Shown: positions 2,600 to 18,999, numbered from the stretch's first letter. The stretch: DNA of 32,000 nt from Candidatus Kuenenia stuttgartensis (GCF_900232105.1 NZ_LT934425.1:1320001-1352000), one strand, 5' to 3'. The notes: generated by a model not told the origin, from the sequence alone. Program-made: numbers and translations.

Positions 2600-3030
2600 A
2601 TGCCCTGTATGCCAAAAAAAATAGCAAGAGTATGCGCTGTAAATTATCCGCACCATATCACCCAGCATGGAAACAATGGGGGAGACGTCTTTTTTGATGA
2701 CGAAGATAAGGCGTTTTATCTAAAGATCCTCCGTTGCTATAGTAAAAAATTGGGTTTGGATATTTGGGCATCCTGTCTATGACAAACCACATCCATATAC
2801 TTGTGACGCCTGAACAAGAAGAATCCCTTGCCAGAGGGATAGGCGGGACAAATCTGGTATACACACAATACATAAACCGCAAATATAAAAGAAGCGGCAG
2901 GCTATGGCAGAGTCGCTTTTATTCCACGATAATAGAAAAAATGCCATACTTATGGACGGTGATAAGATACATAGAACGAAATCCAGTAAAAGACGGGCTT
3001 GTAAAAAAGGCAGAGCCTACCTGCTTATAG
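2600..3030 (+). pseudogene. HUH/Y1 tyrosine transposase (IS200-like / REP-associated RAYT-like), frameshifted and probably C-terminally truncated
   Basis: There are two ORF fragments. The first reads ...YPHHITQHGNNGGDVFFDDEDKAFYLKILRCYSKKLGLDIWASCL*. The second reads MTNHIHILVTPEQEESLARGIGG...SGRLWQSRFYSTII...RYIERNPV. Together they give a family-typical protein with HUH = HIH and the Tyr in RYIERNP. The junction tgtctaTGAcaaacc (about 2775-2782) needs a 1-nt correction to read ...CL-MTNH. Confidence 0.8.
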
Positions 3031-3068: not shown

Positions 3069-4817
3069 ATGGTTAAGGCAAAACATGATGTTGCTGTTCT
3101 TGAAAAATGCCCGACGGGCATCAGGGGTCTCGATGAGATCACGAAGGGAGGGCTTCCGAGAGGCAGGACAACCCTGATCTGCGGCGGTGCGGGTTCCGGC
3201 AAAACACTTTTCGCCATGGAGTTTCTCATGCGAGGCGTCAGGGATTACGGAGAACCCGGGGTCTTCATGAGCTTCGAGGAGACGCCGGAGGATCTCGCGA
3301 AGAACTTTGTCTCACTCGGTTTTGATCTCCCGGACATGATGTCGCGTGGTCTCATCGCAACGGACCACGTCAAAATCGAGCGAAGTGAGGTTGAAGAGAC
3401 GGGTGAATACGACCTGGAAGGATTGTTCATCCGCCTGGGCAGCGCCATTGATTCCATCGGCGCGAAGCGGGTTGTCCTGGATACCATAGAAGCGCTTTTC
3501 TCCGGGTTGTCTAATGCCGCTATCATTCGGGCAGAGCTTCGCCGGCTTTTTCACTGGTTGAAAGAGCGCGGTGTGACGGCCATCGTCACGGGGGAAAGCG
3601 GCGACAAGATGCTGACACGTTACGGGCTCGAAGAATACGTCGCCGATTGCGTGATCTTCCTCGACTTTCGCATCGAGGAGCAAATTTCTACCCGTCGCCT
3701 GCGTATTGTCAAGTACCGCGGCTCGTCTCACGGCTCCGATGAGTATCCTTTCCTGATAGACGAGAGCGGCGTTTCTATCCTGCCAATCACTTCCCTGGGG
3801 CTCGACTACCCCGTTTCCACGGAGCGCATCTCCACTGGCATCCCCAAGTTGGATGCCATGCTTGACGGGAAGGGGTACTACCGGGGCAGTACCATCCTCG
3901 TATCAGGTACAGCGGGTACAGGCAAAACAAGTTTGTCTGCTGCCTTTGCCGATGCCGCTTGCCGGCGAGGTGAGCGCTGTCTCTATTTTGCTTTCGAGGA
4001 ATCGCCCAGCCAGATCATCAGGAACATGGGTTCAATCGGCATGAATCTCGCCCGGTGGGTGAAGAAGGGGCTTCTCAAGTTTCATTCAGCCCGGCCTTCG
4101 CTTTACGGCCTTGAGATGCATCTTGTCACCTTCCACAAGGTGATCAATGAGTTCAATCCCCAGGTTTTCATTGTAGACCCGATCAGCAACCTGAGCGCTG
4201 CGGGAAAAGCATCGGAGGTTAAATCCATATTAACGCGCCTGATCGACTATTTGAAAATGAAAAAGATATCTACTTTCCTTACCGACCTCACCCATTTTGG
4301 AGGCAGCCTTGAACACACAAGCGAGGAGATATCCTCTCTGATCGATACATGGCTTCTCCTCCGGGATATCGAACTCAATGGTGAACGCAACCGGGGCATC
4401 TACATTTTGAAGTCACGCGGCATGGCCCACTCCAACCAGATTCAGGAGTTCCTGCTCACGAACCAGGGCATTGACCTTATCGATATCTATACCGGTCTTG
4501 GCGAGGTATTAACCGGCAGTGCCAGGGCCTCCCAGGAAGCCAGGGAAAAGGCCGCTGAGTTGGTACGCCGGCATGAGGCGGATCGCAGGTTCCGCGAGCA
4601 GGAGTGCAAGAGGAATGTCCTGGAAACAAAAATCGCAGCCCTCCGTGCCGAGTTTGATGCGGAATCTGAAGAGTTGCATTTGATGGCGGAAGGAGAGCGA
4701 AAAAGACAAGCTGTTCTGGCAGAAGGTCGTTTAGAAATGGCGCATCTTCGCAAGGAGGGGACATTCAGCAGTCCGGCGAAGCGCTCGAAAAAAAAGAGAG
4801 AAAGGAGGGTAAAGTGA
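3069..4817 (+). CDS. kaiC: KaiC-family double RecA-like ATPase/autokinase with a roughly 100-aa C-terminal coiled-coil plus basic tail extension
   Basis: 582 aa. The N-terminus [32 protein letters not shown] is the CI Walker A (residues 39-46). The second Walker A is SGTAGTGKT (279-287). Catalytic EE pairs sit after each (FEE 69-71, FEE 309-311). The phosphosite-equivalent motif is [13 protein letters not shown] (Ser422-Ser423). Residues from about 485 to 582 are heptad-like and charged ([22 protein letters not shown]...) and end in [12 protein letters not shown]. Confidence 0.93.
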
Positions 4818-5149
4818 AAGCTGTCTCATCAGGAAAGAGGAAGAAAGCAAAGACCGATTTTACGGAAGGGGTCTGGAATCTCCGGTTGTATGTAGCCGGT
4901 CAGACCCCGAAATCAATTACGGCCTTTGCTAATTTAAAGAGGATCTGCGAAGAGCACCTTGCGGGTAAATACTGCATTGAAGTGATAGACCTTTTAAAGA
5001 ATCCTCTGCTTGCTAAAGGTGACCAGATTATTGCCATACCTACACTGGTAAGGAAGCTCCCTGAACCGCTTAAAAAGATTATCGGAGATCTGGCTAACAC
5101 AGAGCGCGTGCTGGTGGGACTCGACATTCGTTCTGTCTCCGGAGGATAA
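4814..5149 (+). CDS. kaiB: KaiB (thioredoxin-like clock protein), copy 1
   Basis: 111 aa. The core [27 protein letters not shown]...[51 protein letters not shown] matches canonical KaiB. The GTG start overlaps the kaiC stop (GTGA at 4814-4817). AAAGGAGGG SD at 4801-4809. Confidence 0.9.
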
Positions 5150-5278
5150 AATCAACCCTTCGACTATCTCCGGTCTCAAGCCCGGGGTTTGCTCAGGGTT
5201 GATACGGATCGGCACTTTTACCTCGTCCTGAAGGCCGGGGCTTGGCAACGTCGAAGTATCAATTTTGGAGTAACAGCC

Positions 5279-5638
5279 ATGGAGAGGAACAGAGGTAAAA
5301 CGAGCACTGAGAAATTCGAAAAAGCGGCGACGAAGTTAGGCCAGGCAAAGCACGTTTTTCGGCTGTATGTTACAGGGATGACCCCAAAGTCAACCCGGGC
5401 AATCGCCAATGTCCGGAAACTCTGCGAGACATACCTGGCAGGGCGCTACGAACTCAACGTGATAGACATCTACCAGCAGCCCAATCTGGCCAAGGAAGAG
5501 CAGATTATCGCCACCCCAACGCTCATCAAAAAACTCCCACTGCCATTCCGGAGGTTTATCGGCGACATGTCGGATACGGAAAGGTTTCTTGCAGGCATAG
5601 GTCTGGAACCCAAAGAATTCATGAGTACGAACCAATGA
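5279..5638 (+). CDS. kaiB: KaiB, copy 2 (diverged paralog)
   Basis: I trimmed the track ORF 5189..5638 to the ATG at 5279, which has GGAG 9 nt upstream. The core [27 protein letters not shown]...[50 protein letters not shown] is KaiB-like. Roughly half of core positions are identical to copy 1 by eye. The stop overlaps the next start (ATGA at 5635-5638). Confidence 0.88.
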
Positions 5639-7614
5639 GCAAATCGTATAGAACACGACAACAACTTTTGGATGAGTTGCAGGAACTTACGTCGCGGATG
5701 ATGGAAGCGGAGGAAACTCTGCGCGCTATCCGGGGCGGTGAGGTGGATGGACTGGTTGTCTCAACGGCGGAAGGAGAGCGGGTCTTTACACTATCGGGCG
5801 CCGAGCATCCTTACAGAGTCATGGTCGAAACCATGAACGAAGGGGCCGTCACTCTGGCCTCCGACGGCACGATCCTTTTCTGTAACCAACGTTTTGCAGA
5901 TATCGTCCAAAGATCTCTGGGAAAAGTAATGGGATCTTCAATCTACCAATACATTTCATCAACAGACCGCCAATTATTTGAGGCATTGGTTGAGCGGGGT
6001 TTGAAGGGGAACAGTAAGGCGGAACTGGCCTTGCAGACCGGAGGTGAAAATACTGCACCTGCCTTACTTTCCATAAGCACCCTTCAGCACACGGATATGC
6101 CCGCTGTGGTGTGCATGGTGGTTACCGACCTGACGGAACAAAAGCGCAATGAGGAGATGTTGGCGGAGGAAAAACTGACAACTCAAATCCTCAATCAAGC
6201 TGCGGAAATATTTGTTCTCTGTGACCCCCAGGGCCGTATACTCCGTGCAAGTCAGTCGACCAGTAGTCTCTTCGGTAGAAGCCCACTCTTCCAGGTGTTT
6301 GACGAGGCATTTCACCTCCTCTATCCAGACGGGATGCCATTTATCCTTCTCCCTGCAATGAGTGGCAAATTCCTTCACGCGGTTGAGGTCAATTTCAAGC
6401 ATGGGGACAACGAGACTTATTCTTTTCTGTTGAGCGCAAACCCACTTATTACTCATAAAGGCGCCATCGGTATTGTTGTCGTAATGGTGGACATCACCGA
6501 GCGCAGGAAGATGGAAGACTCACGGCAAAAAGACCATGACAAACTCGAGCAGCAGGTGGAGGAGCGGACTCTCGAACTTCGGACGGCTCTTTCTGAAATA
6601 AAAACATTGAAAGACCGACTCGAGGCCGAGAATATTTACTTACGTCACGAGAACAAAAGGAGACATCACTTTGCCCAAATTCTTGGGCAAAGCGATAGTC
6701 TCAAGTATGTTCTCTATCGCGCGGAACAAGTTGCCCCCACGAATGCAACTGTCCTCATCCTTGGTGAGACCGGTACGGGGAAGGAGTTGATCGCTTTCGC
6801 CATCCATGACATGAGCCCCCGCAAGGAACGCCCCATGATCACGGTCAACTGTGCTGCCCTGCCGGGCAATTTAATTGAGAGCGAATTATTCGGCCGGGAG
6901 AAGGGGGCATTTACCGGGGCTGATACCCGGCGGATCGGCCGGTTCGAGGTCGCCAATGGTTCCACCCTTTGCCTGGACGAGATCGGGGAGCTGCCGCTGG
7001 AGTTGCAGGCAAAGCTACTCCGGGTGATTCAGCATAACGAGTTTGAGCGCCTGGGGTCGCCCCATACCATCAAAGTTGATGTACGGATAGTGGCAACGAC
7101 CAATCGAAACCTTGAGGAAGAGATCCGCAATGGCCGTTTCCGGCAGGACCTTTACTATCGGCTCAACGTCTTCCCCATCACTGTCCCACCACTGCGGCAG
7201 CGGAAAGAAGACATCCCTCTGATGGTACACGCCTTCGTAGAGCGATACTCCAGGAAATTGGGCAAACAGATCACGTCGATCCAGAAGGAGGCGATGAAGG
7301 CGCTGCAGGATTATCCATGGCCTGGGAACGTCCGGGAGCTGGAGAGCATCATTGAGCGAGCCGTGATCTTGTGCCCCGGGCCGGTTTTGCAACTTGCAGA
7401 TAAACTGGAGATTTCATCGCCCGCATTTTCATCCACCGTGAGGACATTGGAAGAGACGGAGCGAGACCAAATTCTTAAAATCCTTTCTGAAACCCGATGG
7501 CGCATCGAGGGAAAGAACGGGGCCGCAGCGATTCTGGGCATCCACCCGAGTACCTTAAGAGCGAGGATGCATAAACTCGGGATAGTCCGGCCGGAGACAA
7601 AAGAACCCAATTAG
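5635..7614 (+). CDS. Sigma-54-dependent transcriptional activator: N-terminal coiled coil + two PAS-like domains + AAA+ + Fis-type HTH; no receiver domain
   Basis: 659 aa. The N-terminus reads [35 protein letters not shown]-like blocks: [25 protein letters not shown]...[13 protein letters not shown] and [20 protein letters not shown]...[16 protein letters not shown] coiled-coil linker is followed by [21 protein letters not shown] and [10 protein letters not shown]...[17 protein letters not shown] is [21 protein letters not shown]. Confidence 0.93.
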
Positions 7615-7638: not shown

Positions 7639-7673
7639 CCCTCAACATGTTGATGTCCCGCCAAATATTGAGG
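7639..7673. promoter_or_regulatory. Candidate upstream activator sequence: perfect 12-bp palindrome TCAACATGTTGA (7642-7653) plus flanking CCTCAA/TTGAGG inverted half-sites
   Basis: The palindrome was read directly. It lies about 120-135 bp upstream of the -24 element at 7774, the usual EBP-UAS distance. It sits immediately after the stop of the PAS-EBP gene. Confidence 0.3.
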
Positions 7674-7773
7674 CTAAACGAATCATTTCATACTTTTCTG
7701 CCGTCCTCTACTATTAACCTAACCCCCTTGTTATTAAAGGATTAATCCACACTTCATATTTTCCATCGGCTAT

Positions 7774-7788
7774 TGGCAGACCATTTGC
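7774..7788 (+). promoter_or_regulatory. Sigma-54 (-24/-12) promoter candidate TGGCAG-ACCAT-TTGC
   Basis: It matches TGGCAC-N5-TTGC at 9 of 10 consensus positions with exact GG-N10-GC spacing. It is the only well-spaced match I found on either strand. The predicted start near 7800 is 2 nt before the ATG at 7802. Confidence 0.55.
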
Positions 7789-7801
7789 CAGTAGTATCCT
7801 T

Positions 7802-8134
7802 ATGATCCTCTTAAGCATACGAATGAATGTCCTTTCAGAGAAGCGCCTGGAGTTGTCACAGACGATCGCGTCACTATCCGGTTTCATAAGGATGGAGAAG
7901 GGATGCGAGAGCTGCGACTTCTACCAGAGTATCGAGGATGAAAATCGACTCTTTCTTCTTGAAGAATGGGATACCCGGAAGAACCTTATGGCCCACCTGA
8001 AGTCGGAACGTTTTAAGGTGATCCGGGGAGCGATGTGCCTTCTCAGAGAGCCTTATGAAATGATGTTCCACGCCGTTTTTCACCCGAAAGGGATGGAGGA
8101 GATTTACCCGAAGATCGGACGATCGTGCGACTGA
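7802..8134 (+). CDS. ABM-fold (antibiotic biosynthesis monooxygenase / Dabb-like) small protein
   Basis: 110 aa. The pattern is strand (ILLSIRMNV), helix (EKRLELSQTIASL), then GCESCDFYQSIEDENRLFLLEEWDTRKNLMAHLKSERF. The E.W......H....F portion is typical of ABM ferredoxin-like domains. Confidence 0.65.
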   Translation: MILLSIRMNVLSEKRLELSQTIASLSGFIRMEKGCESCDFYQSIEDENRLFLLEEWDTRKNLMAHLKSERFKVIRGAMCLLREPYEMMFHAVFHPKGMEEIYPKIGRSCD

Positions 8135-8274: not shown

Positions 8275-8454
8275 ATGAAATCCAGTACGAATGACCAGGT
8301 AGAAGGCAAGTTTCACAAAGTGAAGGGCAAGATCAAGGAGATAGCCGGGAAAGTCAGTGAGAATCCCGGGTTGGAAGCCGAAGGCAAAGACGAAAAGAGA
8401 GCCGGTAAAGTTCAGGAAAAGATCGGCCAGGTCAAGAAAGTCATGGGGAAGTAA
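8275..8454 (+). CDS. CsbD-family general stress protein
   Basis: I trimmed the track ORF 8125..8454 to the ATG at 8275, which follows AAGGAGG (8262-8268). The 59-aa product is MKSSTNDQVEGKFHKVKGKIKEIAGKVSENPGLEAEGKDEKRAGKVQEKIGQVKKVMGK, the classic CsbD G-K repeat pattern. Confidence 0.85.
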   Translation: MKSSTNDQVEGKFHKVKGKIKEIAGKVSENPGLEAEGKDEKRAGKVQEKIGQVKKVMGK

Positions 8455-8605
8455 GAGTGCGGCGCGTATCATGCGTCGTCACACCTTTGAAGCCGCGGAT
8501 GAGGTCGGATAGACGTTGATACCATTATACCGCTGGAGGGTAAGGGAAGGCATTACACCCATCATTTCAGCGAAGTTCTTTATATTGTTATCATGAGGAG
8601 AAATT

Positions 8606-8929
8606 ATGGATAAAACAAATTTGATCAAGCGTTTTTTTGCAGTACTTTTTTTGGTTGGGTGGATTGCCGGCAGTCCAGGCTGTGCAGGTACCTCAACGCG
8701 TGAAAGCGTAGGGGAATATGTCGATAGTTCTGTTCTTACGTCCAAGGTTAAGGCGGCAATATTTAATGATCCTATGCTTAAGGTGCTCCAGATCAATGTT
8801 GAAACTTTCAAGGATGTCGTGCAGTTAAGCGGCTTCGTGGATTCCCCGGAGGCTGCTGCCAGGGCAGTGGAAGTAGCGAGATCTGTAGAGGGCGTCAGAG
8901 CTGTTGAAAACAAAATGTCCGTGAAATGA
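8606..8929 (+). CDS. BON-domain (OsmY-like) lipoprotein
   Basis: 107 aa. Signal peptide with lipobox AGSPGC. BON-like core DSSVLTSKVKAAIFNDPMLKVLQINVETFKDVVQLSGFVDSPEAAARAVEVARSVEGVRAVENKM. GAGGAG SD before the ATG. Confidence 0.85.
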   Translation: MDKTNLIKRFFAVLFLVGWIAGSPGCAGTSTRESVGEYVDSSVLTSKVKAAIFNDPMLKVLQINVETFKDVVQLSGFVDSPEAAARAVEVARSVEGVRAVENKMSVK

Positions 8930-8999
8930 ACGGGCGAAAAGCAAATGTATCCTGGAATGTACTTTACTTTAATCTTCTTTTTTCAACGGGAGAACGAAT

Positions 9000-9158
9000 A
9001 TGTCACTTGTTTCAATCTTAATCATAGTTCTGATCCTGATCTTTTTGGGAGTAATCCCCGCCTGGCCACATAGCCGGTCGTGGGGTTATACACCCGGCAG
9101 TGTGATCGGGGTAATAGTGATAATCATAGTAATACTGCTTTTATTGGGCAGAATCTAG
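9000..9158 (+). CDS. DUF3309-like mini membrane protein (52 aa)
   Basis: Below the ORF-track size cutoff and found by eye. The product is MSLVSILIIVLILIFLGVIPAWPHSRSWGYTPGSVIGVIVIIIVILLLLGRI. The P.WP.SR.WGY core and the ending LLLLGRI are as I recall for this family. Confidence 0.7.
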   Translation: MSLVSILIIVLILIFLGVIPAWPHSRSWGYTPGSVIGVIVIIIVILLLLGRI

Positions 9159-9272
9159 TCGCAAGAGGAGATTGGAAATGAAGCGGTGAACTTTGGGAAA
9201 AACTATCACAAGGTGGCTGCGAAAGGTCATGCCTTTTAAAGTAACGAACCATTTAAAGAAAGGAATATTACG

Positions 9273-9560
9273 ATGGAAACGAAGGACGCGTATAAGCAAA
9301 AGATGGAGAAGCAACTGCAAGAGTCGAAGGCGCAGATTGACCTATTGGCTGCGAAGGCTGAGAATGCAGCGGCAGACGTGAAGCTCAGGTACGCTCAGGA
9401 ACTCGATAAACTACGCGACAAACAGCGTATTGCCTCTGAAAAGCTGAAGGCGGTGGAGGAAGCAGGTGACGATGCGTGGGAGAAGGTCAAGGCGACCACG
9501 GATAAGGTTGTGGATGACCTTCAGGCGGGTATCGCCCACGTAGTTTCCTATTTCAAGTAA
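9273..9560 (+). CDS. Cytoplasmic coiled-coil stress-type protein, paralog of the C-terminal half of 10103..10546
   Basis: 95 aa. It shares the pattern KAE.A.AD.K..Y...L..L..KQ..A..KL.......DAWE.VK...D...L......V..FK with the lipoprotein at 10103. Confidence 0.65.
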   Translation: METKDAYKQKMEKQLQESKAQIDLLAAKAENAAADVKLRYAQELDKLRDKQRIASEKLKAVEEAGDDAWEKVKATTDKVVDDLQAGIAHVVSYFK

Positions 9561-9613
9561 AGTAATGGCCGCACGTAAGGCTTCGTTTATGTACAAGATT
9601 GTGAATTTGTTGT

Positions 9614-9670
9614 AAGCCCCGCAACTTTACAGAGAATGTTCCTGTGAGTTCGGGATAATCTTCCTAACAA
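9614..9670 (+). promoter_or_regulatory. Conserved 57-nt leader motif, copy A (candidate cis-regulatory RNA hairpin)
   Basis: It aligns without gaps to 12368-12424 at 43 of 57 positions by hand count. The invariant core is GAATGTTCC...GTTCGGG...TAACAA. Imperfect stems are CCCG/CGGG, AACT/AGTT and ACAG/CTGT. It ends 15 nt before the ATG at 9686. Confidence 0.4.
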
Positions 9671-9685
9671 TAGGCGAAGAGGGAA

Positions 9686-9883
9686 ATGTTAAAGAAATAT
9701 GGAGTAGGTCTGGTATTTATTGGTGCACTGATGTTTGGTGTTGGTGCGGTAAATACAGTGTTGGTTGGCTCTGTTATGGCTACAAGTCATGAAGAGGGAC
9801 GTGAATGCGAAAAATGCGGACACTTGCCAACAAAACCTGAAAATGATTGCAAATGTGTATGTCACGCAAAGAAGGGTTATTAA
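9686..9883 (+). CDS. Small exported Cys/His-rich peptide (65-aa precursor, roughly 33-aa mature)
   Basis: The signal peptide MLKKYGVGLVFIGALMFGVGAVNTVLVGSVMA is followed by TSHEEGRECEKCGHLPTKPENDCKCVCHAKKGY. The N-terminus is paralogous to 12137..12316. A purine-rich SD is present. Confidence 0.6.
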   Translation: MLKKYGVGLVFIGALMFGVGAVNTVLVGSVMATSHEEGRECEKCGHLPTKPENDCKCVCHAKKGY

Positions 9884-9935
9884 TATCCCGGACAAAGACA
9901 TACATCATCTTTTGCTGTATCAATGGGTCAGCTAA

Positions 9936-9968
9936 ATCCTGCAATCAGTTATCAACTGATTGCAGGAT
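9936..9968. repeat. 33-bp palindrome (15-bp perfect arms, 3-nt centre), copy A
   Basis: The sequence is ATCCTGCAATCAGTT-atc-AACTGATTGCAGGAT. The arms are identical to those at 12724-12756. There is no flanking T-run on either strand. Confidence 0.85.
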
Positions 9969-10102
9969 AAGGTTGAAAACGGATATATAAGGAAAGGCTT
10001 TTTGTGGATATGAGAAAGAGTTGTTTTGTGTGTTAATCGGGTGTGAAGTGAAGTGCCTGGATGGTTTTTAATGGTTTATTGTATCAGAAAGGATATAAAA
10101 AT

Positions 10103-10546
10103 ATGAAAAGAATTGGATTAATGGTAGCACTATTTGTCTCTATGTTTTTTATGACGTCTTGTAACAAGAAGACGCCTGAAAAAGGGGAAACCAAAGTATC
10201 GACAGAAGAGGTCAAACGTGAAACAGGTGAAGCCCTTGAAACAAAAAAAACTTACCTGACACAGCAAAAAGAAAAATACCAGAAGGATGCTGAATCAACA
10301 TTGAACTACCTCAGTGATAAGATAAAAGACCTTCAGGCAAAGGCCGGGCAAGCAGGGGCAGATACCAAGGCAAAGTACAATGAGATAATTGAAGGATTAC
10401 AAAAGAAGCAAGGAGAAGCACAAGATAAATTAAATGAACTCAAATTGAAAAGCGCTGACGCCTGGGAGGATGTTAAATCCGGAATGGATGCAGCCCTGGA
10501 AAGTTTGAAGAGTTCTTATAATGATGCTGTTTCTCATTTCAAATAA
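10103..10546 (+). CDS. Coiled-coil lipoprotein (YqjC-like position)
   Basis: I trimmed the track ORF 10061..10546 to the ATG at 10103. The signal plus lipobox is MKRIGLMVALFVSMFFMTSC. The rest is charged and heptad-like, ending DAWEDVKSGMDAALESLKSSYNDAVSHFK, like 9273..9560. Confidence 0.75.
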   Translation: MKRIGLMVALFVSMFFMTSCNKKTPEKGETKVSTEEVKRETGEALETKKTYLTQQKEKYQKDAESTLNYLSDKIKDLQAKAGQAGADTKAKYNEIIEGLQKKQGEAQDKLNELKLKSADAWEDVKSGMDAALESLKSSYNDAVSHFK

Positions 10547-10570
10547 TCTTCATACAGGTAAGAGAAAATT

Positions 10571-10981
10571 ATGAAGACCAGGAAGATGATTTACCATCTT
10601 ATTTTGTGTATTTTAGCGGATCTTGTGAAACAAGAAGAGCAAACATTCACAAGTTTTGCAAAAATTAAAATCAAGGCAGTGATTTGCTATATCAAGGCCA
10701 TTCGATTTATACGGCGAATATGCATCGGTATAGTACTCTTAATTTTGAGTTTAGTGGTAATGATCAGTGGTTTTATATTTTTACATGTGGCGTTTCTTTA
10801 TTATTTTCCTTTGAGTAAAGAAGTAAAGATGTTCGTTATCTTTTCCCTCGGTATTGTCTATTTTCTGGTTCCGCTAGGGGTTCTTCTTTACTTTACTTCA
10901 CAGAGATTTTGGATGAAATTTTCGAAAGCAAGTACATTGATACAAAAAGTTTTGGATACGGTTTCTGAAGATAAAAAATAA
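10571..10981 (+). CDS. Two-TM membrane protein, YqjE / holin-X (DUF1469)-like
   Basis: 136 aa. An amphipathic N-terminus is followed by two long hydrophobic helices (ICIGIVLLILSLVVMISGFIFL, MFVIFSLGIVYFLVPLGVLLYF). It sits next to a DUF883 gene, as in the E. coli yqjCDEK cluster. The assignment rests on architecture and context. Confidence 0.5.
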   Translation: MKTRKMIYHLILCILADLVKQEEQTFTSFAKIKIKAVICYIKAIRFIRRICIGIVLLILSLVVMISGFIFLHVAFLYYFPLSKEVKMFVIFSLGIVYFLVPLGVLLYFTSQRFWMKFSKASTLIQKVLDTVSEDKK

Positions 10982-10998
10982 ATGAGAAAGGAGAGGGC

Positions 10999-11355
10999 AT
11001 GGCGGATAACCAAACTACAGAAAAAGCGGGAGACATATTAAAAATTGACGAAGCGCTTGGATTGCTGGATAGAGAATTAAAAGGAAAGAGCGGTGAGATT
11101 AATCGGTTGATTAGTGAAAAATATTCAAATCTCAAAGAGATTATGAGTGGAGCAACACACACGGGCAGGGAAGCGATAGAAAAAACATGTCATACTTTGG
11201 AAGAGGCTGTTAAGAGAGGAGAGGAGAAAACGAAAGAAATAGGGATGGAAATTGATCGAAAAGTTCATGCTAATCCATGGTTGGCGGTAGGCATTGCTGC
11301 CGTTAGTGGTTTCCTCTTATGCTATATCATAGAAGCAGGCAAACGTTCAAAGTGA
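10999..11355 (+). CDS. DUF883 family (ElaB/YqjD/YgaM-like) C-tail-anchored stress protein
   Basis: 118 aa. A charged helical body is followed by the family-typical tail HANPWLAVGIAAVSGFLLCYII. AAAGGAGAG SD. Confidence 0.8.
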   Translation: MADNQTTEKAGDILKIDEALGLLDRELKGKSGEINRLISEKYSNLKEIMSGATHTGREAIEKTCHTLEEAVKRGEEKTKEIGMEIDRKVHANPWLAVGIAAVSGFLLCYIIEAGKRSK

Positions 11356-11552
11356 TTAGCAGGTTTTTCGTTCTTTGATAATGCATTTTGCAAGCGAGAA
11401 TTTAAGCCGGGAATTAATGCCTGCTTAAATTAGTCCTTCGGCGGCTTTTTAAAGTAAAGCAAAGAGCCTCTTTACTCTAAATTCGCAACATTGAATTTCC
11501 TATATGTTGGAATATTCAAAACTGAAAAAGATTCAGGAATAGGTAAAAAATC

Positions 11553-11832
11553 GTAACTATTCAGCGTAAACGATACACGGCTCGTTCCCAAACTCCAGTT
11601 TGGGAATGCATTTGTTCGAGAAACTCCGGTTTCTCGCCTGTTTGCTGATAGATAGGGAATAAAATCACAGGGTTAAGACAGTTTGTAATTTGTCAAGTCA
11701 GACCCTCACTGGAAACAAAGTTTCCAGTGCCATTACGTTCCCAAACAGGCACTTCACTATGTTCAGTACAAGGTTTGGGAACGAGTTGCGCTCTGATCTC
11801 CGGTAGTTTAATAAATTACGCTGAATAGTTAC
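11553..11832. mobile_element. 280-bp MITE-like element with 17-bp perfect terminal inverted repeats and an 8-bp target-site duplication
   Basis: The TIRs are GTAACTATTCAGCGTAA (11553-11569) and TTACGCTGAATAGTTAC (11816-11832). The flanking direct repeat is AAAAAATC (11545-11552 and 11833-11840). There is no ORF. Four internal perfect hairpins lie at 11585-11606, 11617-11636, 11707-11729 and 11736-11783. Confidence 0.65.
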
Positions 11833-11883
11833 AAAAAATCAGGAATAATCTAAACACTTAACCTAATATAACGGAGAATTACT

Positions 11884-12033
11884 ATGCTTTTAGTTATAGC
11901 TGCTGTGTTGATCATATTGTGGATTCTGGGTCTGGTCACTTCCACCACCCTGAGCGGTTTCGTTCACATTCTTCTGGTGATCGCAATCGTGGTCATCGTG
12001 ATTAATATCATTCGCGGACGAAGACGTCCGTGA
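11884..12033 (+). CDS. lmo0937-family-like mini membrane protein (49 aa)
   Basis: Below the track cutoff. The product is MLLVIAAVLIILWILGLVTSTTLSGFVHILLVIAIVVIVINIIRGRRRP. The pattern W.LG......L.G..HILLVIA...........RGRR is as I recall for this family. GGAG SD 7 nt upstream. Confidence 0.65.
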   Translation: MLLVIAAVLIILWILGLVTSTTLSGFVHILLVIAIVVIVINIIRGRRRP

Positions 12034-12316: not shown

Positions 12317-12367
12317 TATATTTTAAAATTATTTTGTCATAGGATTTTTTTTTACGAAAACTTTGAT

Positions 12368-12424
12368 AAGCCCAGCAATCTTACCGGGAATGTTCCAGGT
12401 GGTTCGGGTTAAACTCTTTAACAA
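12368..12424 (+). promoter_or_regulatory. Conserved 57-nt leader motif, copy B
   Basis: See 9614-9670. It has the same length, ends at the same TAACAA, and is followed by a purine-rich SD and the ATG at 12440. Stem positions differ from copy A in a partly compensatory way (AACT/AGTT becomes AATC/GGTT). Confidence 0.4.
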
Positions 12425-12439
12425 GAGAAGGAGAAGTAA

Positions 12440-12700
12440 ATGTCAGATAAATGTACAGACGAGAGGAAAAATATTAATATTGCTCAGGTACCGGCTGTAG
12501 TTAAGGCTGCAATTGAGAAGGAAACTGCCGGCTGCACCATCAAGAAAATAGTGAAAAAAGAGGCCGATGGCAAAACGTGTTATGCAGTCGAGTGTGTAAA
12601 GAACGGTGTGGAAAAAAAGCTCAAATTTACAGAAGAAGGCTCTATTGTGACAGACAAAGGGGAAAAACCCAAGAGTGGCGCAGGTACTAGCTGTTGTTAA
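12440..12700 (+). CDS. PepSY-like small protein ending in GAGTSCC
   Basis: 86 aa. VPAVVKAAIEKETAGCTIKKIVKKEADGKTCYAVECVKNGVEKKLKFTEEGSIV matches the PepSY-like pattern (P..V...I.KE..G..I........DGK..Y.VE....G.E....F...G). No signal peptide is evident. Confidence 0.55.
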   Translation: MSDKCTDERKNINIAQVPAVVKAAIEKETAGCTIKKIVKKEADGKTCYAVECVKNGVEKKLKFTEEGSIVTDKGEKPKSGAGTSCC

Positions 12701-12723
12701 AGCTAAATTGAGAAGGAAACTGC

Positions 12724-12756
12724 ATCCTGCAATCAGTTATTAACTGATTGCAGGAT
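12724..12756. repeat. 33-bp palindrome, copy B
   Basis: The sequence is ATCCTGCAATCAGTT-att-AACTGATTGCAGGAT. The arms are identical to 9936-9968 and both are followed by AAGG. Confidence 0.85.
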
Positions 12757-12940
12757 AAGGAGGCCGTAAAAAAAACGAAATATGACGCGGATAAGTAATG
12801 GCCTGGGAATTTTTTATTATACCGTAGTAATCGGCAGTCTATCGTCGGCAAATTGCAGACTGAGGACTGAGTGGTAACACCATTTCACTGAAATTATTTA
12901 TGGATATTTATTTCACCAAAAGACCAAAAAAGGAGGTACC

Positions 12941-13630
12941 ATGCTTAGCAGACGAGAATTTTTAACACTGGCAGGCGTGGGTGGAGCAGCAATCGTACTT
13001 AATTTTAACAACCCTTTACATGCAGAAATAAAAAAGGAGACGGAAATTATGACATACACCGCAAAGGATTATTCGCAACTCATCGGGATGGAGGGATTCA
13101 GCGAAACACTTTTGAAAAACCACTTTACCCTCTATCAGGGATATGTAACAAACACAAATAAGGTACTCGATACTCTCGGTCAGATGTTGAAGGAGGGAAA
13201 GACGGCAAGCCCTGAGTTTGCAGAATTGAAGAGACGGCTTGGGTGGGAATTTAATGGGATGAGGCTCCATGAATATTATTTTGAAAATCTTGGCAAGAAA
13301 AAAGGCGGCATGAACAAGGAAGGAACGCTTGCCAAAAAGATGACAGCGGAATTTGGCAGTTATGAGATGTGGGAAAAGGATTTCAGGGCAGTAGGAAGTA
13401 TGAGGGGAATCGGGTGGGCAGTCCTCTATCAGGATAGTGCCAGCGGGAGGCTCATTAACTTCTGGATAAATGAACACGATGTTTCTCATCCTGCAGGATG
13501 CAATCCCATATTGATCCTGGACGTATTTGAACATGCCTTTATGATAGATCACGGTCTAAAGAAGGCGGATTATATTGAGGCATTCTTTAAGAACATTGAC
13601 TGGTCAGTCGCAGAAGCAAGGCTAAAATAA
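12941..13630 (+). CDS. Fe/Mn-family superoxide dismutase with a twin-arginine (Tat) signal peptide
   Basis: 229 aa. The N-terminus is MLSRREFLTLAGVGGAAIVL. SOD motifs are NHFTLYQGYVTNTN, FNGMRLHEYYF and ILILDVFEHAFMIDH (equivalent to D-V-W-E-H-A-Y-Y). The presumed metal ligands His/His/Asp/His are present. AAGGAGG SD. Confidence 0.85.
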   Translation: MLSRREFLTLAGVGGAAIVLNFNNPLHAEIKKETEIMTYTAKDYSQLIGMEGFSETLLKNHFTLYQGYVTNTNKVLDTLGQMLKEGKTASPEFAELKRRLGWEFNGMRLHEYYFENLGKKKGGMNKEGTLAKKMTAEFGSYEMWEKDFRAVGSMRGIGWAVLYQDSASGRLINFWINEHDVSHPAGCNPILILDVFEHAFMIDHGLKKADYIEAFFKNIDWSVAEARLK

Positions 13631-13646
13631 AAGGGAGGATTTTTTT

Positions 13647-13853
13647 ATGAACAAAGTAGTCTCGCTTGCAATACTTGCCGTGGGTATCCTGTTTATAATT
13701 TTAGGCGTCAGCGCAACGAAGTCGTTTAGTTCCGACATTTCCCGGTTTTTCACCGGCTCACCCACCGACAAGGCGATATGGATGTTGATCGGCGGCGCTG
13801 TAGCTGTAATTGTGGGGTTGGTGGGACTGCGGAGTTGGTCAAAGGGAAGTTAA
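13647..13853 (+). CDS. DUF3185-like small two-TM membrane protein
   Basis: 68 aa. FSSDISRFFTGSPTDKAIWMLIGG matches my memory of the DUF3185 core. GGGAGG SD. Confidence 0.7.
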   Translation: MNKVVSLAILAVGILFIILGVSATKSFSSDISRFFTGSPTDKAIWMLIGGAVAVIVGLVGLRSWSKGS

Positions 13854-14044
13854 GCGTGTTGGTCCTGTTTTTATGACTATACCCATGAAGACCATAAAAG
13901 GTGGGTTTTAAATTGACAGTGGGGTGGCACGGACAAACCCTGTTTGTTCGTGTTGAGCTTGTACGACATTATCTATAAACCCTGTTAAAAAGTCAGGAAG
14001 AGTCCTTGTCCTCACAAACTGAGCTTTCTTTCTCACATGGTAAA

Positions 14045-14057
14045 TCACAAATTGTGA
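14045..14057. promoter_or_regulatory. Palindrome TCACAA-A-TTGTGA upstream of the catalase gene (candidate operator)
   Basis: A perfect 6-1-6 palindrome, 35 nt upstream of the ATG at 14092. A TATAAT hexamer lies at 14070-14075. I recognise no known box. Confidence 0.25.
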
Positions 14058-14091
14058 TACTCTTGAGAATATAATTGAAAGGTGAAAAGAA

Positions 14092-15537
14092 ATGAGTAAA
14101 ACTAAAGTCTTAACTACAGCGGCAGGCATACCTGTCTGCGATAATCAGACTTCCCTCACCGCCGGAGAACGCGGCCCGACGTTGTTACAAGATCACCATC
14201 TTCTTGAAAAATTGGCGCATTTCAACCGTGAACGTATCCCTGAGCGTGTTGTCCATGCAAAAGCAGCCGGTGCACATGGTACTTTCATCGTTACCAAAGA
14301 CATCACCCGATACACAAAAGCCAGCATCTTTTCGGAAGTTGGGAAAAAAACCGATGTATTTGGCCGATTTTCTACTGTGGCAGGGGAAAAAGGCTCTGCT
14401 GATACGGTTCGGGATGTCAGAGGCTTTGCATTGAAATTCTACACTGAAGAAGGCAATTGGGATATGGTAGGAAACAATACTCCCGTGTTTTTTGTACGGG
14501 ACGCCATAAAATTCCCCGATTTCGTTCATACCCAGAAACGTGAACCTCAAACCAATCTAAGGTCAAAAACCATGATGTGGGATTTCTGGTCGCAGGTTCC
14601 GGAATCATTGCATCAGGTAACTATTCTGTTTTCAGATCGCGGCATCCCCATGGGCATCCCCTTTATGCATGGTTTCGGGAGTCATACCTACAGCTTTATC
14701 AATGCGGACAATGAACGTTTTTGGGTGAAGTTTCACTTCAAGACTCAACAGGGCATTCGGAATATGACTCCGGAAAATGCAGACCGTATTGCAGGGGAAG
14801 ATGCCGACTACCATACACGTCTGTTATTTGAAACTATCGGGAGTGGGGATTACCCTAAGTGGACATTTTATGTCCAGGTAATGCCGGAATCTGAAGCGGA
14901 AACGTACCGGTGGAATCCGTTTGATTTAACCAGGATATGGTCGCATAGTGACTATCCTTTGATAGAGGTTGGGGTATTGGAGATGAACCGCAATCCCTCG
15001 AACTATTTTGCCGAAGTCGAGCAGTCTGCTTTTTCTCCTGCTAACGTTGTTCCCGGTATTTCTTTTTCTCCCTGTAAAATGCTCCAGGGACGTATTTTTG
15101 CCTATGCAGATGCCCATCGGTATAGACTAGGCGTGAACTTTGGGCATCTACCGATAAACCGTCCGCTTGCCACGGCAGCAAACACCTATCAGCGGGATGG
15201 CTCAATGAGATTCGATGACAACGGCGGAGCTTCCGTAAATTATGAGCCGAACAGTTTCGGAGGACCCAAAGCAGACCACGCGTATAATGAGCCGCCGCTG
15301 AAAATTTCAGGTGACGCGAATCGCTATGAACAGAAAAGAGGTATTGATGATGATTTCGTCCAACCCGGAAATCTCTTCCGGCTGTTGCCGCCTGACGAAC
15401 GGAAACGGCTCATTGAAAACATTGTTGCAAGTCTTAGAAAAACGCCGAAAGACATCCAGGAAAGGATGGTTCCGTATTTTTACAAAGCAGATGAGGCTTA
15501 TGGAGAAGGTGTTGCAAAGGGACTAGGGCTTTCATAA
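14092..15537 (+). CDS. katA: Monofunctional heme catalase (small-subunit type)
   Basis: 481 aa. [22 protein letters not shown] holds the distal His. Further matches are [47 protein letters not shown] and [14 protein letters not shown] (proximal Tyr region). Confidence 0.95.
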
Positions 15538-16940
15538 GAGAATAATACGTTCTCCTCTTGAAGCGGAAATAGAAAGGATAGGTAAAATGATCTATAAAAG
15601 CATAAAGAAAAACATAGGGTTTGGCTTCCTCGCACTCTTTGGGTGCTGTTTGTTCTTGCCCACCCTTGCTAATGCACGGGTTGGTATAACGGCTACCGAT
15701 AAAAAATATATTATTCTGCAAGCCGTCATCATGTTTCATTTGCAACACCCAGAAACGATGAAAATGGTTTTATAACCATATCATATTGCGGTACCTGTGC
15801 TTGAGCTATTTTTTGTAGTTTTACTTTCGAGTCGAAAACATCTGGCATTTCTGTTTCTGTACCGGTTCAAATGTATATGGCCATCCAAAAGGTATCAGAT
15901 TGTAATTTACAAGGTCTCTGCTTGTCATTGCAGGGGGGGGGCTCCGCTTGTCATTGCGAGGGTCTTTTCCGAAACAATCAATATACTACGAGATATTTTG
16001 TGACATAAGAGACGCCATATCGCGGGAGAAAGAAGCAAATTAAGGGTGGCTCAAGGGCTAAAAAAATAGAATTAATTAATGGAATGAATGCAGGATGGAA
16101 GGATCTCTATTACGGTTTATGAGGTTGCTTCGGAAAAGACCCTCGCAATGACAAAACGGATACCCGCGTAATGGCAAAATGAGTCATCAGTCATCATGTT
16201 TCATTTGCAACACCCAGAAACGATGAAAAATGGTTTTATAACCATATCATATTGCGGTACCTGTGCTTGAGCTATTTTTTGTAGTTTTACTTTCGAGTCG
16301 AAAACATCTGGCATTTCTGTTTCTGTACCGGTTCAAATGTATAGGGCCATCCAAAAGGTATCAGCTTGTAATTTACAAGGTCTCTGCTTGTCATTGCAGG
16401 GGGGGGGCTCCGCTTGTCATTGCGAGGGTCTTTTCCGAAGCAATCAATATACTACGAGATATTTTGTGACATAAGAGACGCCATATCGCGGGAGAAAGAA
16501 GCAAATTAAGGGTGGCTCAAGGGCTAAAAAAATAGAATTAATTAATGGAATGAATGCAGGATGGAAGGATCTCTATTACGGTTTATGAGGTTGCTTCGGA
16601 AAAGACCCTCGCAATGACAAGCTGAAAAGACCCTCGCAATGACAAAACGGATACCCGCGTAATGACAAAATGAGTCATCAGTCATCATGTTTCATTTGCA
16701 ACACCCAGAAACGATGAAAATGGTTTTATAATCATATCATATTGCGGTACCTGTGCTTGAGCTATTTTTTGTAGTTTTACTTTAGAGTCGAAAACATCTG
16801 GCATTTCTGTTTCTGTACCGGTTCAAATGTATAGGGCCATCCAAAAGGTATCAGCTTGTAATTTACAAGGTCTCTGCTTGTCATTGCAGGGGGGGTTCCG
16901 CTTGTCATTGCGAGGGTCTTTTCCGAAGCAATCAATATAC

Positions 16941-18999
16941 CCCATGTTCCGGAAAGAAATTACTAAAGTCAAATTTGGCAAACACTTATAAACATTGATT
17001 CTGCGACTACATGTCTTTTGGAAGTCTTTTAATTACTGGCCGAAAACAACATTGGACATTCCAAGTTTTTCCAATAGCATTTGTGTGACGGCGGGAAGTT
17101 TCACGGCTTTCTTTAAGGTTTCACCGGTATTTTTAGCCTCAAGAGTGGCGATATCTATATCTTTGAACGGCGCATAGAGTTCCTTTGAGTTTAAAAAATC
17201 TTTTTCTCCTATTGCCTTTCGTTGGTTTGATAGATAACGGTTTATAAAATATGCCAGGATGCAGATAGTATAGACGGCTTTAACATGTGCCTCGGTATTG
17301 ACAAAGAAGGGCCTGATTTTTAAGAACGATTTTACATTTTTAAAGACATCTTCTATTTTTGTCTTGTCCCGATAGGCTCTAACTATAGATTGGGGTTTTG
17401 CTTTAAACGCACCTCCATCTTCCCGTTCTGTATGGTTAGTGATAAAAACACATACGCCATCCAACAATCTATCTGCGGCTATAACATCAGTTAACAGCTT
17501 GATTTCTATTTTGAAACTTTTGACGGATTTGACCTGCCCGTTTTTCAGTCTATGGGTAACGGTGATGGACGTCAGAACAGGGTCTTCGAAATATTTATGA
17601 ATCTTTAACCTTTTCAGCTCATCTACAATGCGGCTCTTTGTTGCGTCATATTGCCGGTCTCTTTGGGCATTTTTAAGGTTTTTATTCTCTTCTTTGAGAT
17701 AATCCTTAAAAAAGGTTATTTTCTCGTCTCTATTATTGCGGTCTTCTATAAATAAAGTGGGATTAAAACCGGTAATAAAACGCTTGTTTCCTATGACGCC
17801 ATTGTCATGGTAGTATAATTCATCATCATAGTTTAAAAACCCTTGCGGGATAGGTATATCGGAGGCGTCCTTATCTTCTATGGATAACCCATTAAGAGAC
17901 TTTAAACTGACACCGCAAGAGGGTATCTGATTTCTATCCAATGCCGAGATGTATTTGAGTTTGGCTTCTTCTATCAAATTGGCATTGTCCTCAGAGATTA
18001 TGCCTCTGTCAAATACAAGGGTGACGTTTTTATCAGTCAATTTGAATCTGGTTTTACAGGCATTGATATTCTGTTTGAGGGTTTTTACCTCAGCGGTGTT
18101 CCCGGGGAATACATCCCATTTGAAAGGATATCCCTCAGAGTTGATAAGAACACCCAGTAAGACCTGCCGCCTGCCATGACACTCTATTTTGCCCTTGCCA
18201 AATGCCGATAGATCACAGTTATATCCCACAAAGTAGGAAGTAGTTAGGTCGTAGTTGATAAATTTATAGGATTCCGGACGTTTCCAGAAGGTTTGGTTAA
18301 AAAGGTGGTTCTCTATAGATATTTTGTTTTTGTGTATTTTATCTAATTCATAATAGATTTTATCGTCATTTAGGCCTGAAAGATCAATTTTAAGAATGTC
18401 CTCCAGCGCGCTCTTTTTCGCCCAATGAGGAATGGAATAATGAGAACACGGATCGGTGCACCTGTTAATAGTCAGTATCTTTGCAATCATATTGGTAGGA
18501 AGGGCGCCTGCAGTGACATCGTAGTCAAAAGCCTGATCAAGCTGCCACTGGTTCCACAACTCATTAACAACGGCTATATCGAGATATGCCCTGCTTTCCA
18601 GGACTGCAACGTCTTTGAGCTGAGTCTGCAATTGATCTGTGTTTTCAACTGTTTTACATATCAGTTTGATTTGCTCGGCTTGAATATCGGAAAGTTTCCC
18701 GATGGGCCAAAGTATTCTTTTTCTGACCTTTTTGCCATCCCTGTAGGATTCGGCAATAGAGTAAGATTTATAGGTTTTCCCTTTGTATTTAGAATCGCTA
18801 TAAGTAAGGTGCATAATGTAGTCCCAATATTCTTTGACTACACTATCATTAATAAAATATTTTGTCAAGTCAGTATTTATAGGGTTATAAAGGATTTGTA
18901 TTAATAAATAGGCCATTTATTCTGCGACTACATATTATTTTGAATTTGTGGAAACCCGCTTAAAATAAGGATTTTGTTGAAATCTTTCCGGAAAGGGGG
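16941..18999 (-). mobile_element. IS1634-family (IS4 superfamily) insertion sequence, 2059 bp, with 6-bp target duplication ATATAC
   Basis: It interrupts repeat unit 3 exactly. Uninterrupted units read CAATCAATATACTACGAG. Here ATATAC occurs at 16935-16940 and 19000-19005. The imperfect TIRs are CCCATGTTCCGGAAAGA... (left end) and the complement of ...TCTTTCCGGAAAGGGGG (right end). Confidence 0.85.
17033..18916 (-). CDS. IS1634-family DDE transposase
   Basis: 627 aa, intact. The N-terminal signature KGKTYKSYSIAESYRDGKKVRKRILWPIGKL is typical of IS1634-type transposases. The true start may be the internal Met at 18814 (MHLTYSDSKYKGKTY). Confidence 0.88.
   Translation of the reverse strand: MAYLLIQILYNPINTDLTKYFINDSVVKEYWDYIMHLTYSDSKYKGKTYKSYSIAESYRDGKKVRKRILWPIGKLSDIQAEQIKLICKTVENTDQLQTQLKDVAVLESRAYLDIAVVNELWNQWQLDQAFDYDVTAGALPTNMIAKILTINRCTDPCSHYSIPHWAKKSALEDILKIDLSGLNDDKIYYELDKIHKNKISIENHLFNQTFWKRPESYKFINYDLTTSYFVGYNCDLSAFGKGKIECHGRRQVLLGVLINSEGYPFKWDVFPGNTAEVKTLKQNINACKTRFKLTDKNVTLVFDRGIISEDNANLIEEAKLKYISALDRNQIPSCGVSLKSLNGLSIEDKDASDIPIPQGFLNYDDELYYHDNGVIGNKRFITGFNPTLFIEDRNNRDEKITFFKDYLKEENKNLKNAQRDRQYDATKSRIVDELKRLKIHKYFEDPVLTSITVTHRLKNGQVKSVKSFKIEIKLLTDVIAADRLLDGVCVFITNHTEREDGGAFKAKPQSIVRAYRDKTKIEDVFKNVKSFLKIRPFFVNTEAHVKAVYTICILAYFINRYLSNQRKAIGEKDFLNSKELYAPFKDIDIATLEAKNTGETLKKAVKLPAVTQMLLEKLGMSNVVFGQ

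Follow-up and report, generated by a model that had tools for sequence, protein, structure and literature searches.

A 32,000-nucleotide stretch of DNA from the anammox planctomycete Candidatus Kuenenia stuttgartiensis, an organism of interest to biotechnology, carries a four-gene unit in which kaiC and two copies of kaiB are followed by a gene for a sigma-54 enhancer-binding protein (EBP). The whole stretch is called the window hereafter, and positions refer to it unless another locus is named. In cyanobacteria, Kai output runs through the histidine kinases SasA and CikA to RpaA. The targets and partners of KaiBC systems outside the cyanobacteria are largely open. The locus looks like a new output route for Kai timers outside the cyanobacteria, a variation on the known kaiC-kaiB-PAS/kinase theme in which a sigma-54 activator takes the place of the kinase. 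If true, this would be the first link of Kai proteins to sigma-54 transcription, and it is relevant both to non-cyanobacterial Kai research and to sigma-54 regulation. Full-text literature searches gave no paper linking KaiB or KaiC with sigma-54 or an EBP; the wider links between Kai and sigma-54 or RpoN were incidental, and none of the papers listed on Kuenenia, Kai and sigma-54 mentions Kuenenia.

Gene content and protein architecture of the operon

All four genes are intact and lie on the same strand (Table 1). The kaiC stop and the kaiB1 start share the letters GTGA (4814-4817), and the kaiB2 stop and the EBP start share ATGA (5635-5638). The gap between the two kaiB genes is exactly 129 bp with kaiB2 starting at the ATG at 5279, which lies inside a 149-codon open reading frame (ORF) and has a GGAG ribosome-binding site 8 nt 5' of it. 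Thus kaiC, kaiB and a PAS signalling gene are joined in one same-strand unit of overlapping or closely spaced genes, as in an operon. This packing had been reported in a preliminary description made from the sequence alone, and both overlaps and the gap were borne out. Searches with hidden Markov models recovered every domain named there, including PF06745, PF07689 in two genes, two PAS domains, Sigma54_activat and HTH_8, and also AAA_lid_14. The description also stated that the 32 kb hold no kaiA, SasA- or CikA-like kinase or response regulator; Pfam scans of the remaining window ORFs agree, as no KaiA, histidine kinase or receiver was found among them. Rfam and tRNA scans over the window gave no matches.

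The KaiC protein has two Walker A loops (GGAGSGKT at residues 39-46 and GTAGTGKT at 280-287), two catalytic glutamate pairs (FEE at 69-71 and 309-311) and a Ser-Ser motif, all of which had been listed beforehand and were located by a motif check. Its closest solved structure is Rhodobacter sphaeroides KaiC (8DBA, E=1.6e-192), in an alignment of residues 12-547 that spans the C-terminal coil, and with its 582 residues it has the coiled-coil C-terminal extension of about 50-60 residues. Residues Ser-Ser 422-423 align with the R. sphaeroides phosphosites S413/S414 (EISSLIDTW versus GLSSLMDGW in 8DBA), and the phosphomimetic structure 8FWI reads GLEELMDGW at this position (S413/S414 to Glu-Glu). 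By these features, KaiC is assigned to the KaiA-independent R. sphaeroides-like subgroup, and phosphorylation at the Ser-Ser pair is predicted. In R. sphaeroides, the C-terminal extension gives KaiC autophosphorylation without KaiA, and KaiB binding together with the ATP-to-ADP ratio drives dephosphorylation, so that KaiBC acts as an hourglass timer (PMC10076222).

The KaiB core, previously described for both copies, is matched by PF07689 in each. The closest solved relative of KaiB1 is R. sphaeroides KaiB (8FWJ_M, E=1.6e-30), and KaiB2 is more diverged (E=1e-25); their similarity to the R. sphaeroides KaiB in 8FWJ is 66% and about 55%, respectively. From this similarity, KaiB would be expected to bind the CI ring of KaiC in the fold-switched state.

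The last gene encodes a complete EBP, with a coiled coil, two PAS domains and no receiver, in agreement with the preliminary description. Pfam identifies Sigma54_activat (PF00158, E=1e-70) and AAA_lid_14, and the motifs comprise GAFTGA (residues 424-429), Walker A GETGTGKE (377-384), Walker B LDEI (447-450) and the RQDLYYRL region, followed by a Fis-type HTH_8 at the C terminus. The sequence features of a sigma-54 activator are thus all present, namely an AAA+ domain with the arginine-finger region, a helix-turn-helix and an adjacent putative enhancer and promoter. The kinase domains HisKA and HATPase_c are absent from the protein by Pfam, and neither the KaiB-like thioredoxin fold of the SasA type nor the pseudo-receiver of the CikA type is found in it by Pfam or AlphaFold2.

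An AlphaFold2 model of EBP residues 1-345, built from a 94-sequence alignment with a mean confidence (pLDDT) of 89.9, gives the order helix, beta-hairpin, PAS1, linker helix, PAS2 and a long helix running into the AAA+ domain. Sequence searches with the sensor region against the PDB found no meaningful match, and a fold search returned generic tandem PAS proteins only, with no closer solved match. The first 180 residues, here called the reader module, have a mean column identity of 82% among orthologs, while PAS2 is exchanged for another PAS domain or missing in sub-clades. The conserved Kai-linked part is therefore the helix, the beta-hairpin and PAS1, and not a PAS-PAS region in general; PAS2 is swappable. 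The reader signature includes TLxGA..pYR..vE.MNEGA, and the nearly invariant residues of the family cluster at the end of the helix, in the hairpin and in the first strands of PAS (E24-D38, T52-R61, E65-A71 and N84). Within the family, conservation is highest in the N-terminal helix and hairpin, yet the monomer model is least confident there, a combination that would fit a partner-dependent surface.

Table 1. Features of the kai-EBP locus and the genes that follow it
Feature	Position	Strand	Description and basis
kaiC	3069..4817	+	582 aa; PF06745 twice, E=1e-111; double-domain, predicted KaiA-independent type with C-terminal coiled-coil extension
kaiB1	4814..5149	+	111 aa; GTG start; PF07689, E=5e-26
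kaiB2	5279..5638	+	119 aa; PF07689, E=3e-26; diverged second KaiB
EBP gene	5635..7614	+	659 aa; Kai-linked N-terminal module, PAS2, coiled-coil linker, AAA+, HTH_8 (Pfam, motifs)
Kai-linked reader module (aa 1-180)	5635..6174	+	helix 8-34, beta-hairpin 39-52, PAS1 57-165 (AlphaFold2)
PAS2 (aa 192-286)	6208..6492	+	variable second sensor (AlphaFold2 model)
Linker helix (aa 288-344)	6496..6666	+	predicted coiled coil (AlphaFold2, pLDDT >92)
Sigma-54 AAA+ core, lid and HTH_8	6679..7575	+	core aa 349-515, lid 521-589, HTH_8 604-647 (Pfam, motifs)
Putative enhancer	7640..7673	+	palindrome and second half-site; conserved block in 10-locus alignment
Sigma-54 type -24/-12 element TGGCAGACCATTTGCC	7774..7789	+	predicted transcription start near 7800
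ABM-domain gene	7802..8134	+	110 aa; CxxCxxC motif; PF03992, E=3e-12; first and most conserved predicted target
CsbD	8275-8454	+	Pfam
BON	8606-8929	+	Pfam
DUF3309	9000-9158	+	Pfam
DUF883	10999-11355	+	Pfam
DUF5670	11884-12033	+	Pfam

Conservation of the gene order and the reader family

Three neighbourhoods and a scan of one genome per species yielded 80 loci (numbered with the prefix L), of which 65 with an N-terminal region at least 60% identical form a close set and the other 15 are more distant. Among the close loci, KaiB stands directly 5' of the reader in 63 of the 64 whose upstream DNA is long enough; KaiC occurs in 44/48 and the sigma-54 AAA+ domain in 50/53. About 65 species-level genomes of Desulfobacterota share the order KaiC-KaiB1-KaiB2-EBP. 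They come from the Syntrophales, Syntrophaceae, Syntrophorhabdaceae, Smithellaceae, Desulfobacterales, Desulfobacteraceae, Desulfomonilia, Desulfatiglandaceae and other lineages, and include Desulfobacterium sp. N47 and ORM2a, the latter a complete genome. Moreover, more than 100 full-length orthologs of the EBP share 70-98% identity. Because the order recurs in about 65 genomes and the reader module follows KaiB, the adjacency of EBP and Kai genes is not accidental, nor is it confined to one contig. Comparative evidence (synteny, module family, and promoter and enhancer) thus supports the proposal of a functional coupling between Kai timer and EBP in which sigma-54 transcription replaces the kinase output. 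The accompanying claim that no phosphorelay is involved stands inside this window; it does not extend to some Desulfobacterota loci, which hold a reader kinase besides the EBP. In the Desulfobacterium sp. N47-like loci L003/L004, a PAS hybrid histidine kinase with a receiver (12343-14340) lies directly 3' of the EBP and is preceded by a sigma-54 element, TGGCAGACTATTTGCT, at 12181; the Kai-EBP system of these genomes may have this kinase among its targets.

The two KaiB groups differ across loci at fixed, group-specific positions. Both groups keep the fold-switch Gly and Asp, equivalent to G88 and D90 of S. elongatus, as vGlD in KaiB1 and vGiD in KaiB2; the KaiB2 copy of the window itself reads GIGL, with Gly in place of the fold-switch Asp. 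The order KaiB1 then KaiB2 is constant in 64 loci. In addition, kaiB2 always directly adjoins the reader gene, and L033 and L034 contain a joint duplication of KaiB2 and reader. The fixed order and the duplicated pair lend indirect support to the suggestion that the two KaiB proteins serve different partners.

The reader module is considerably more widespread than the EBP. An exhaustive search over 1.84 billion representative proteins at a cut-off of E<=1e-30 defined a family of 1443 clusters, with the module at the extreme N-terminus. The best 150 representatives comprise 97 kinases, 3 sigma-54 EBPs, 1 GGDEF-EAL protein and 49 unassigned sequences, many of them fragments. In the 15 distant loci, a module 39-49% identical starts the gene directly 3' of KaiC-KaiB(-KaiB). 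These loci belong to Acidobacteriota, Bdellovibrionales, three Undibacterium species, Verrucomicrobiota and others, and their outputs are HisKA, HisKA_2 or HisKA_3 kinases, a hybrid kinase, or GGDEF-EAL-REC; the Undibacterium family members have a GGDEF-EAL output. Four representatives at 31-49% identity all stand directly after KaiB, and relatives from metagenomes occupy the same position. In two archaea-like contexts, L095 and P0213 (a Methanotrichaceae protein from a metagenome-assembled genome (MAG), and a locus with a DUF1699 neighbour), the gene again follows KaiB.

Exchange of the output is also found close to the EBP clade. In L007 (1801-3909) and L014 (10001-12478), both of the close clade, the EBP-type sensor consisting of N-terminal module and PAS2 is carried by a HisKA_3 kinase. 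The complete genome of L034 encodes KaiC-KaiB1-KaiB2-EBP and, at 15832-17929, a second KaiB2 followed by a near-identical N-terminal module with a HisKA_3 kinase, whereas in L033 (8570-9984) a reader kinase and a second KaiB2 are inserted 5' of the EBP. Output shuffling in these four loci appears to be very recent. Owing to the output counts and to the duplications in L034 and L033, the sigma-54 protein is a rare output variant within a large family of Kai-associated sensors, and KaiB2 and reader behave as a unit.

Putative enhancer, promoter and target genes

The intergenic region between the EBP and ABM genes contains a conserved block in an alignment of 10 loci. In the window, a palindrome, CCTCAACATGTTGATG (7640-7655), and a half-site, CCGCCAAATATTGAGG (7658-7673), lie directly 3' of the EBP stop; the consensus is CCTCAAYATRTTGAGG for the palindrome and CCTCAATATATTGAGG for palindrome plus half-site. 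The palindrome is found nowhere else in the window (2 hits versus 0.16 expected). About 132 bp 3' of it stands a -24/-12 element of the form TTGGCA-N5-TTTGC, in which GG and TTGC are invariant and the spacer varies. This element is located 12-14 nt 5' of the ABM start in 20/20 loci that have ABM behind the EBP. Scanning the window with a simple sigma-54 consensus yields no more than chance (15 hits versus 15.5 expected), and the promoter site was recognised only via cross-locus conservation.

In the Desulfobacterota loci, the strict -24/-12 pattern with a downstream ORF occurs 77 times, against about 15-20 expected by chance as a rough estimate, and 38 of these 77 promoters have the palindrome, a putative upstream activator sequence (UAS), 129-134 bp 5' of the -24 element. 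The genes behind the 38 pairs encode ABM (about 21 intact copies), DUF3309, DUF5670, CsbD, DUF4398/OmpA, DUF932-like and small membrane proteins. A sigma-70 promoter at 7773-7800 (weak TTGGCA/TATCCT) was considered and rejected, since GG and TTGC are invariant at sigma-54 spacing with an enhancer about 132 bp 5', and the sigma-70 start would fall within the ABM coding sequence. Autoregulation of kaiC was likewise discarded as a general feature, as a sigma-54 element or UAS lies within 450 bp 5' of kaiC in only 3/58 loci.

The ABM protein and its orthologs share the conserved cysteine motif GCxxCDFC/YQS, and the start codon varies between ATG and GTG across loci. Two promoter-ABM copies are present in L005, and truncated ABM remnants lie 5' of kaiC in L067 and probably in L001. 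In the window, the ABM gene is followed by an array of small stress-type genes on the same strand (8275..12033), including unnamed ORFs, with superoxide dismutase and catalase genes next. No separate sigma-54 site for the array genes was found in the window, and they are possibly co-transcribed with ABM. Their membership in the regulon is suggested because the CsbD, DUF3309 and DUF5670 families follow UAS plus sigma-54 promoters in Desulfobacterota.

Origin, proposed mechanism and rival explanations

The Kai block differs in composition from the rest of the window, with a GC content of 0.526 (range 50-55%) as compared to 0.410 in the flanks. From about position 3025 on, its DNA is 86-93% identical to Desulfobacterota MAG loci over kaiC-kaiB1 and about 81-83% identical over kaiB2-EBP-ABM. 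The Desulfobacterota cassettes have a GC content of 0.50-0.56 regardless of flank values of 0.41-0.58. Owing to this deviating GC content and the high identity to the Desulfobacterota copies, we conclude that the cassette was acquired horizontally from Desulfobacterota, and we regard it as a signalling unit that is complete in itself and can move horizontally. Several assemblies of Kuenenia encode its proteins, among them complete chromosomes (one of 4.4 Mb), and each protein is found on up to about 100 contigs; the genes are annotated there just as KaiC, KaiB family and sigma-54-interacting regulator. A frameshifted remnant of a Y1/IS200-like transposase of the REP-associated type (ORFs 2540-2782 and 2764-3030) abuts the high-GC left border, and is also present in the near-identical Kuenenia contigs L090 and L091. 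Just 5' of the cassette, at 863-2485, lies an FhlA-like, GAF-type sigma-54 activator gene of native GC content, which makes an rpoN gene in the host likely. Its 5' region contains a near-consensus -24/-12-like element, TGGCACAACGATTGTT, at 594-609 on the minus strand, in which T replaces the C of the -12 GC.

The interpretation that we consider probable is that a KaiBC hourglass driven by the ATP/ADP ratio is read via KaiB by the N-terminal module of the EBP and gates sigma-54 transcription of stress genes. By homology, KaiC would autophosphorylate at high ATP/ADP, and a falling energy charge would lead to the dephosphorylated, KaiB-bound state. KaiC would thus be an hourglass or energy-state timer reporting energy charge and elapsed time. 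As the EBP has no receiver, its helix-hairpin-PAS1 module would read the Kai state, most likely via fold-switched KaiB on the KaiC ring, with KaiB2 as a likely dedicated adaptor between KaiC and the EBP. Binding would alter the dimer geometry of PAS2 and the coiled-coil linker, and thereby free or block assembly of the AAA+ ring. The active EBP on the palindrome would then remodel sigma-54 RNA polymerase at the -24/-12 element and activate transcription of ABM and, probably, of the stress genes 3' of it. The comparisons show the gene content, motifs and synteny, the family-wide tie between module and KaiB, the exchange of outputs, the conserved enhancer and promoter and the horizontal origin, whereas the physical contact and its partner, the activating Kai state, the extent of the operon and the physiological cue are inferred. 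Binding of the N-terminal module to KaiB is put forward as the most likely route because KidA uses its N-terminal PAS domains to bind fold-switched KaiB; the same authors noted PAS genes that share an operon with kaiBC outside the cyanobacteria (PMC9478674).

Among known arrangements, the kaiC-B-PAS/HK operon (HK, histidine kinase) reported in purple bacteria comes closest (PMC4794148). The operons of Rhodopseudomonas palustris and R. sphaeroides share with the present locus a KaiA-less, coiled-coil KaiC with the Ser-Ser motif, an R. sphaeroides-like KaiB and the order kaiC, kaiB, then a PAS signalling protein. However, the last protein there is a histidine kinase, whereas here it combines a sigma-54 AAA+ domain with HTH_8, and the locus has two diverged KaiBs as well as its own putative enhancer and sigma-54 promoter. 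KidA is likewise a signalling protein with an N-terminal PAS region as the Kai contact and a GGDEF-EAL output, as in the Undibacterium members. It is, however, unlinked to kaiBC, works with the KaiA-dependent KaiABC system and tunes the period rather than transcription; the likeness is one of analogy. SasA and CikA also turn the state of KaiC or KaiB into transcription, but they do so by a KaiB-like thioredoxin fold (SasA) or a pseudo-receiver (CikA) and the RpaA phosphorelay; the EBP has neither domain, and its output would be direct ATP-dependent remodelling of sigma-54 polymerase. Receiver-less PAS/GAF EBPs of the FhlA and NifA/NifL type resemble the protein in their N-terminal sensors, coiled-coil linker, GAFTGA-bearing AAA+ domain and Fis-type helix-turn-helix, and in a palindromic enhancer about 130 bp 5' of a -24/-12 promoter. 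Their input is a small molecule or a partner such as NifL, whereas here it appears to be KaiBC, a protein timer encoded in the same operon.

Some observations weigh against the proposed KaiBC-gated switch. The reader is kept in loci with a single KaiB (Undibacterium, L072 and L075), and KaiB2 is therefore not needed everywhere. In the window, the palindrome is slightly degenerate in its left half, with GATG for GAGG, and the predicted start 1-3 nt before the ABM ATG would give a near-leaderless mRNA, which is unusual for a sigma-54 promoter. It is also conceivable that PAS1 or PAS2 binds a cofactor or a small ligand. Furthermore, the cassette is foreign to Kuenenia, so its function in this host is not guaranteed, and an anammox-type MAG, Planctomycetia bacterium H5_AMX3 (L025, 9690-13814), holds a decayed copy with kaiB2, EBP and ABM and no kaiC or kaiB1. 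The EBP frame of this copy stops after residue 419 and the remaining AAA+ part resumes about 1.3 kb later, which suggests interruption by an insertion; the enhancer and promoter remain. In a rival explanation, the cassette would be a recent, silent or decaying passenger in Kuenenia, and the adjacency would be functionless in this host. The deviating GC content and Desulfobacterota-like DNA, the transposase remnant at the left border with further transposases nearby, the degenerate UAS and the decayed anammox copy speak for such a passenger. However, neither ABM nor any of the four genes is disrupted and the catalytic motifs are all kept, the same proteins recur in several assemblies of Kuenenia, complete chromosomes among them, and a native sigma-54 activator lies next door, and we regard a functionless passenger as highly improbable.

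Two further explanations place the contact or the signal elsewhere. The reader might bind KaiC itself, for example with its N-terminal amphipathic helix joining the C-terminal coil or sensing the register of the coil, and the KaiBs would then act only on KaiC. KaiC does have such a coil here, the coil shifts register with phosphorylation in R. sphaeroides, and the reader begins with a strongly conserved helix (residues 8-34). Yet readers with the same module also stand beside KaiCs of 490-512 residues without the long coil (L082, L085 and L094), which weakens the coil as a general docking site. In addition, kaiB and not kaiC is the constantly adjacent, overlapping and co-duplicated gene, and the PAS precedent, KidA, binds KaiB; contact with KaiC alone thus seems unlikely. 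A quite unlikely explanation is that the EBP works chiefly as an ordinary PAS sensor for redox state, oxygen, a metabolite or another small signal, with Kai only modulating it, or that it serves as an input to or tuner of the Kai timer like KidA. The tandem PAS region indeed resembles the ligand-sensing pairs of FixL, DosP, MmoS and NifL, exchange of PAS2 between sub-clades suggests differing signals, KidA alters the clock period, and oxidative-stress genes, for superoxide dismutase and catalase, lie nearby. However, the part tied to KaiB throughout the family is the N-terminal module and not a ligand pocket, and it is located N-terminal to every type of output, the usual position of an input domain. 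Such a small-signal sensor would be compatible with the KaiBC-gated switch if both signals were integrated.

A bolder generalisation is attractive but tentative, and we would sooner expect it to fail than to hold in full. The helix-hairpin-PAS1 module would be a universal Kai-state reader in bacteria and archaea, docking on KaiB-KaiC and pluggable onto a kinase, a cyclic di-GMP enzyme or a sigma-54 ATPase. In anaerobes living without light (Desulfobacterota and anammox bacteria), the cassette would serve as an hourglass of energy charge. Once ATP/ADP had been low for a set time, it would activate a sigma-54 regulon for general stress or dormancy, and it would spread between phyla as a ready-made unit with its own enhancer and promoter. 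For experimental work, the locus offers a testable chain, consisting of a timer with a solved close homologue, a reader module, an ATPase activator that is simple to assay in vitro, a candidate enhancer and promoter and a candidate stress regulon, which is short enough for rebuilding in vitro. Moreover, the reader signature finds Kai output proteins across phyla, and the cassette shows a Kai timing unit to be able to move horizontally into an anammox bacterium.

The surroundings of the stress-gene array are rich in scars of mobile elements. Between the catalase gene and a DDE transposase gene, three tandem units of about 470-490 bp (15725-17016), two of them 99% and 69% identical to the first, each contain TGGCATTTCTGTTTCT. 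DDE_Tnp_1 transposase genes at 17033-18916 and 20964-22067, both on the minus strand, flank an alpha/beta hydrolase gene on the plus strand (19588-20402), which is split into two overlapping ORFs and is likely a frameshift pseudogene. At the far end of the window, a dCache_1 sensor gene begins at 31436 and continues past the window end. A TPR protein gene at 24633-25283 (minus strand) has 216 codons here and in one Kuenenia assembly and 298-322 codons in others (L087, L088); this difference is a strain-level frameshift or truncation.

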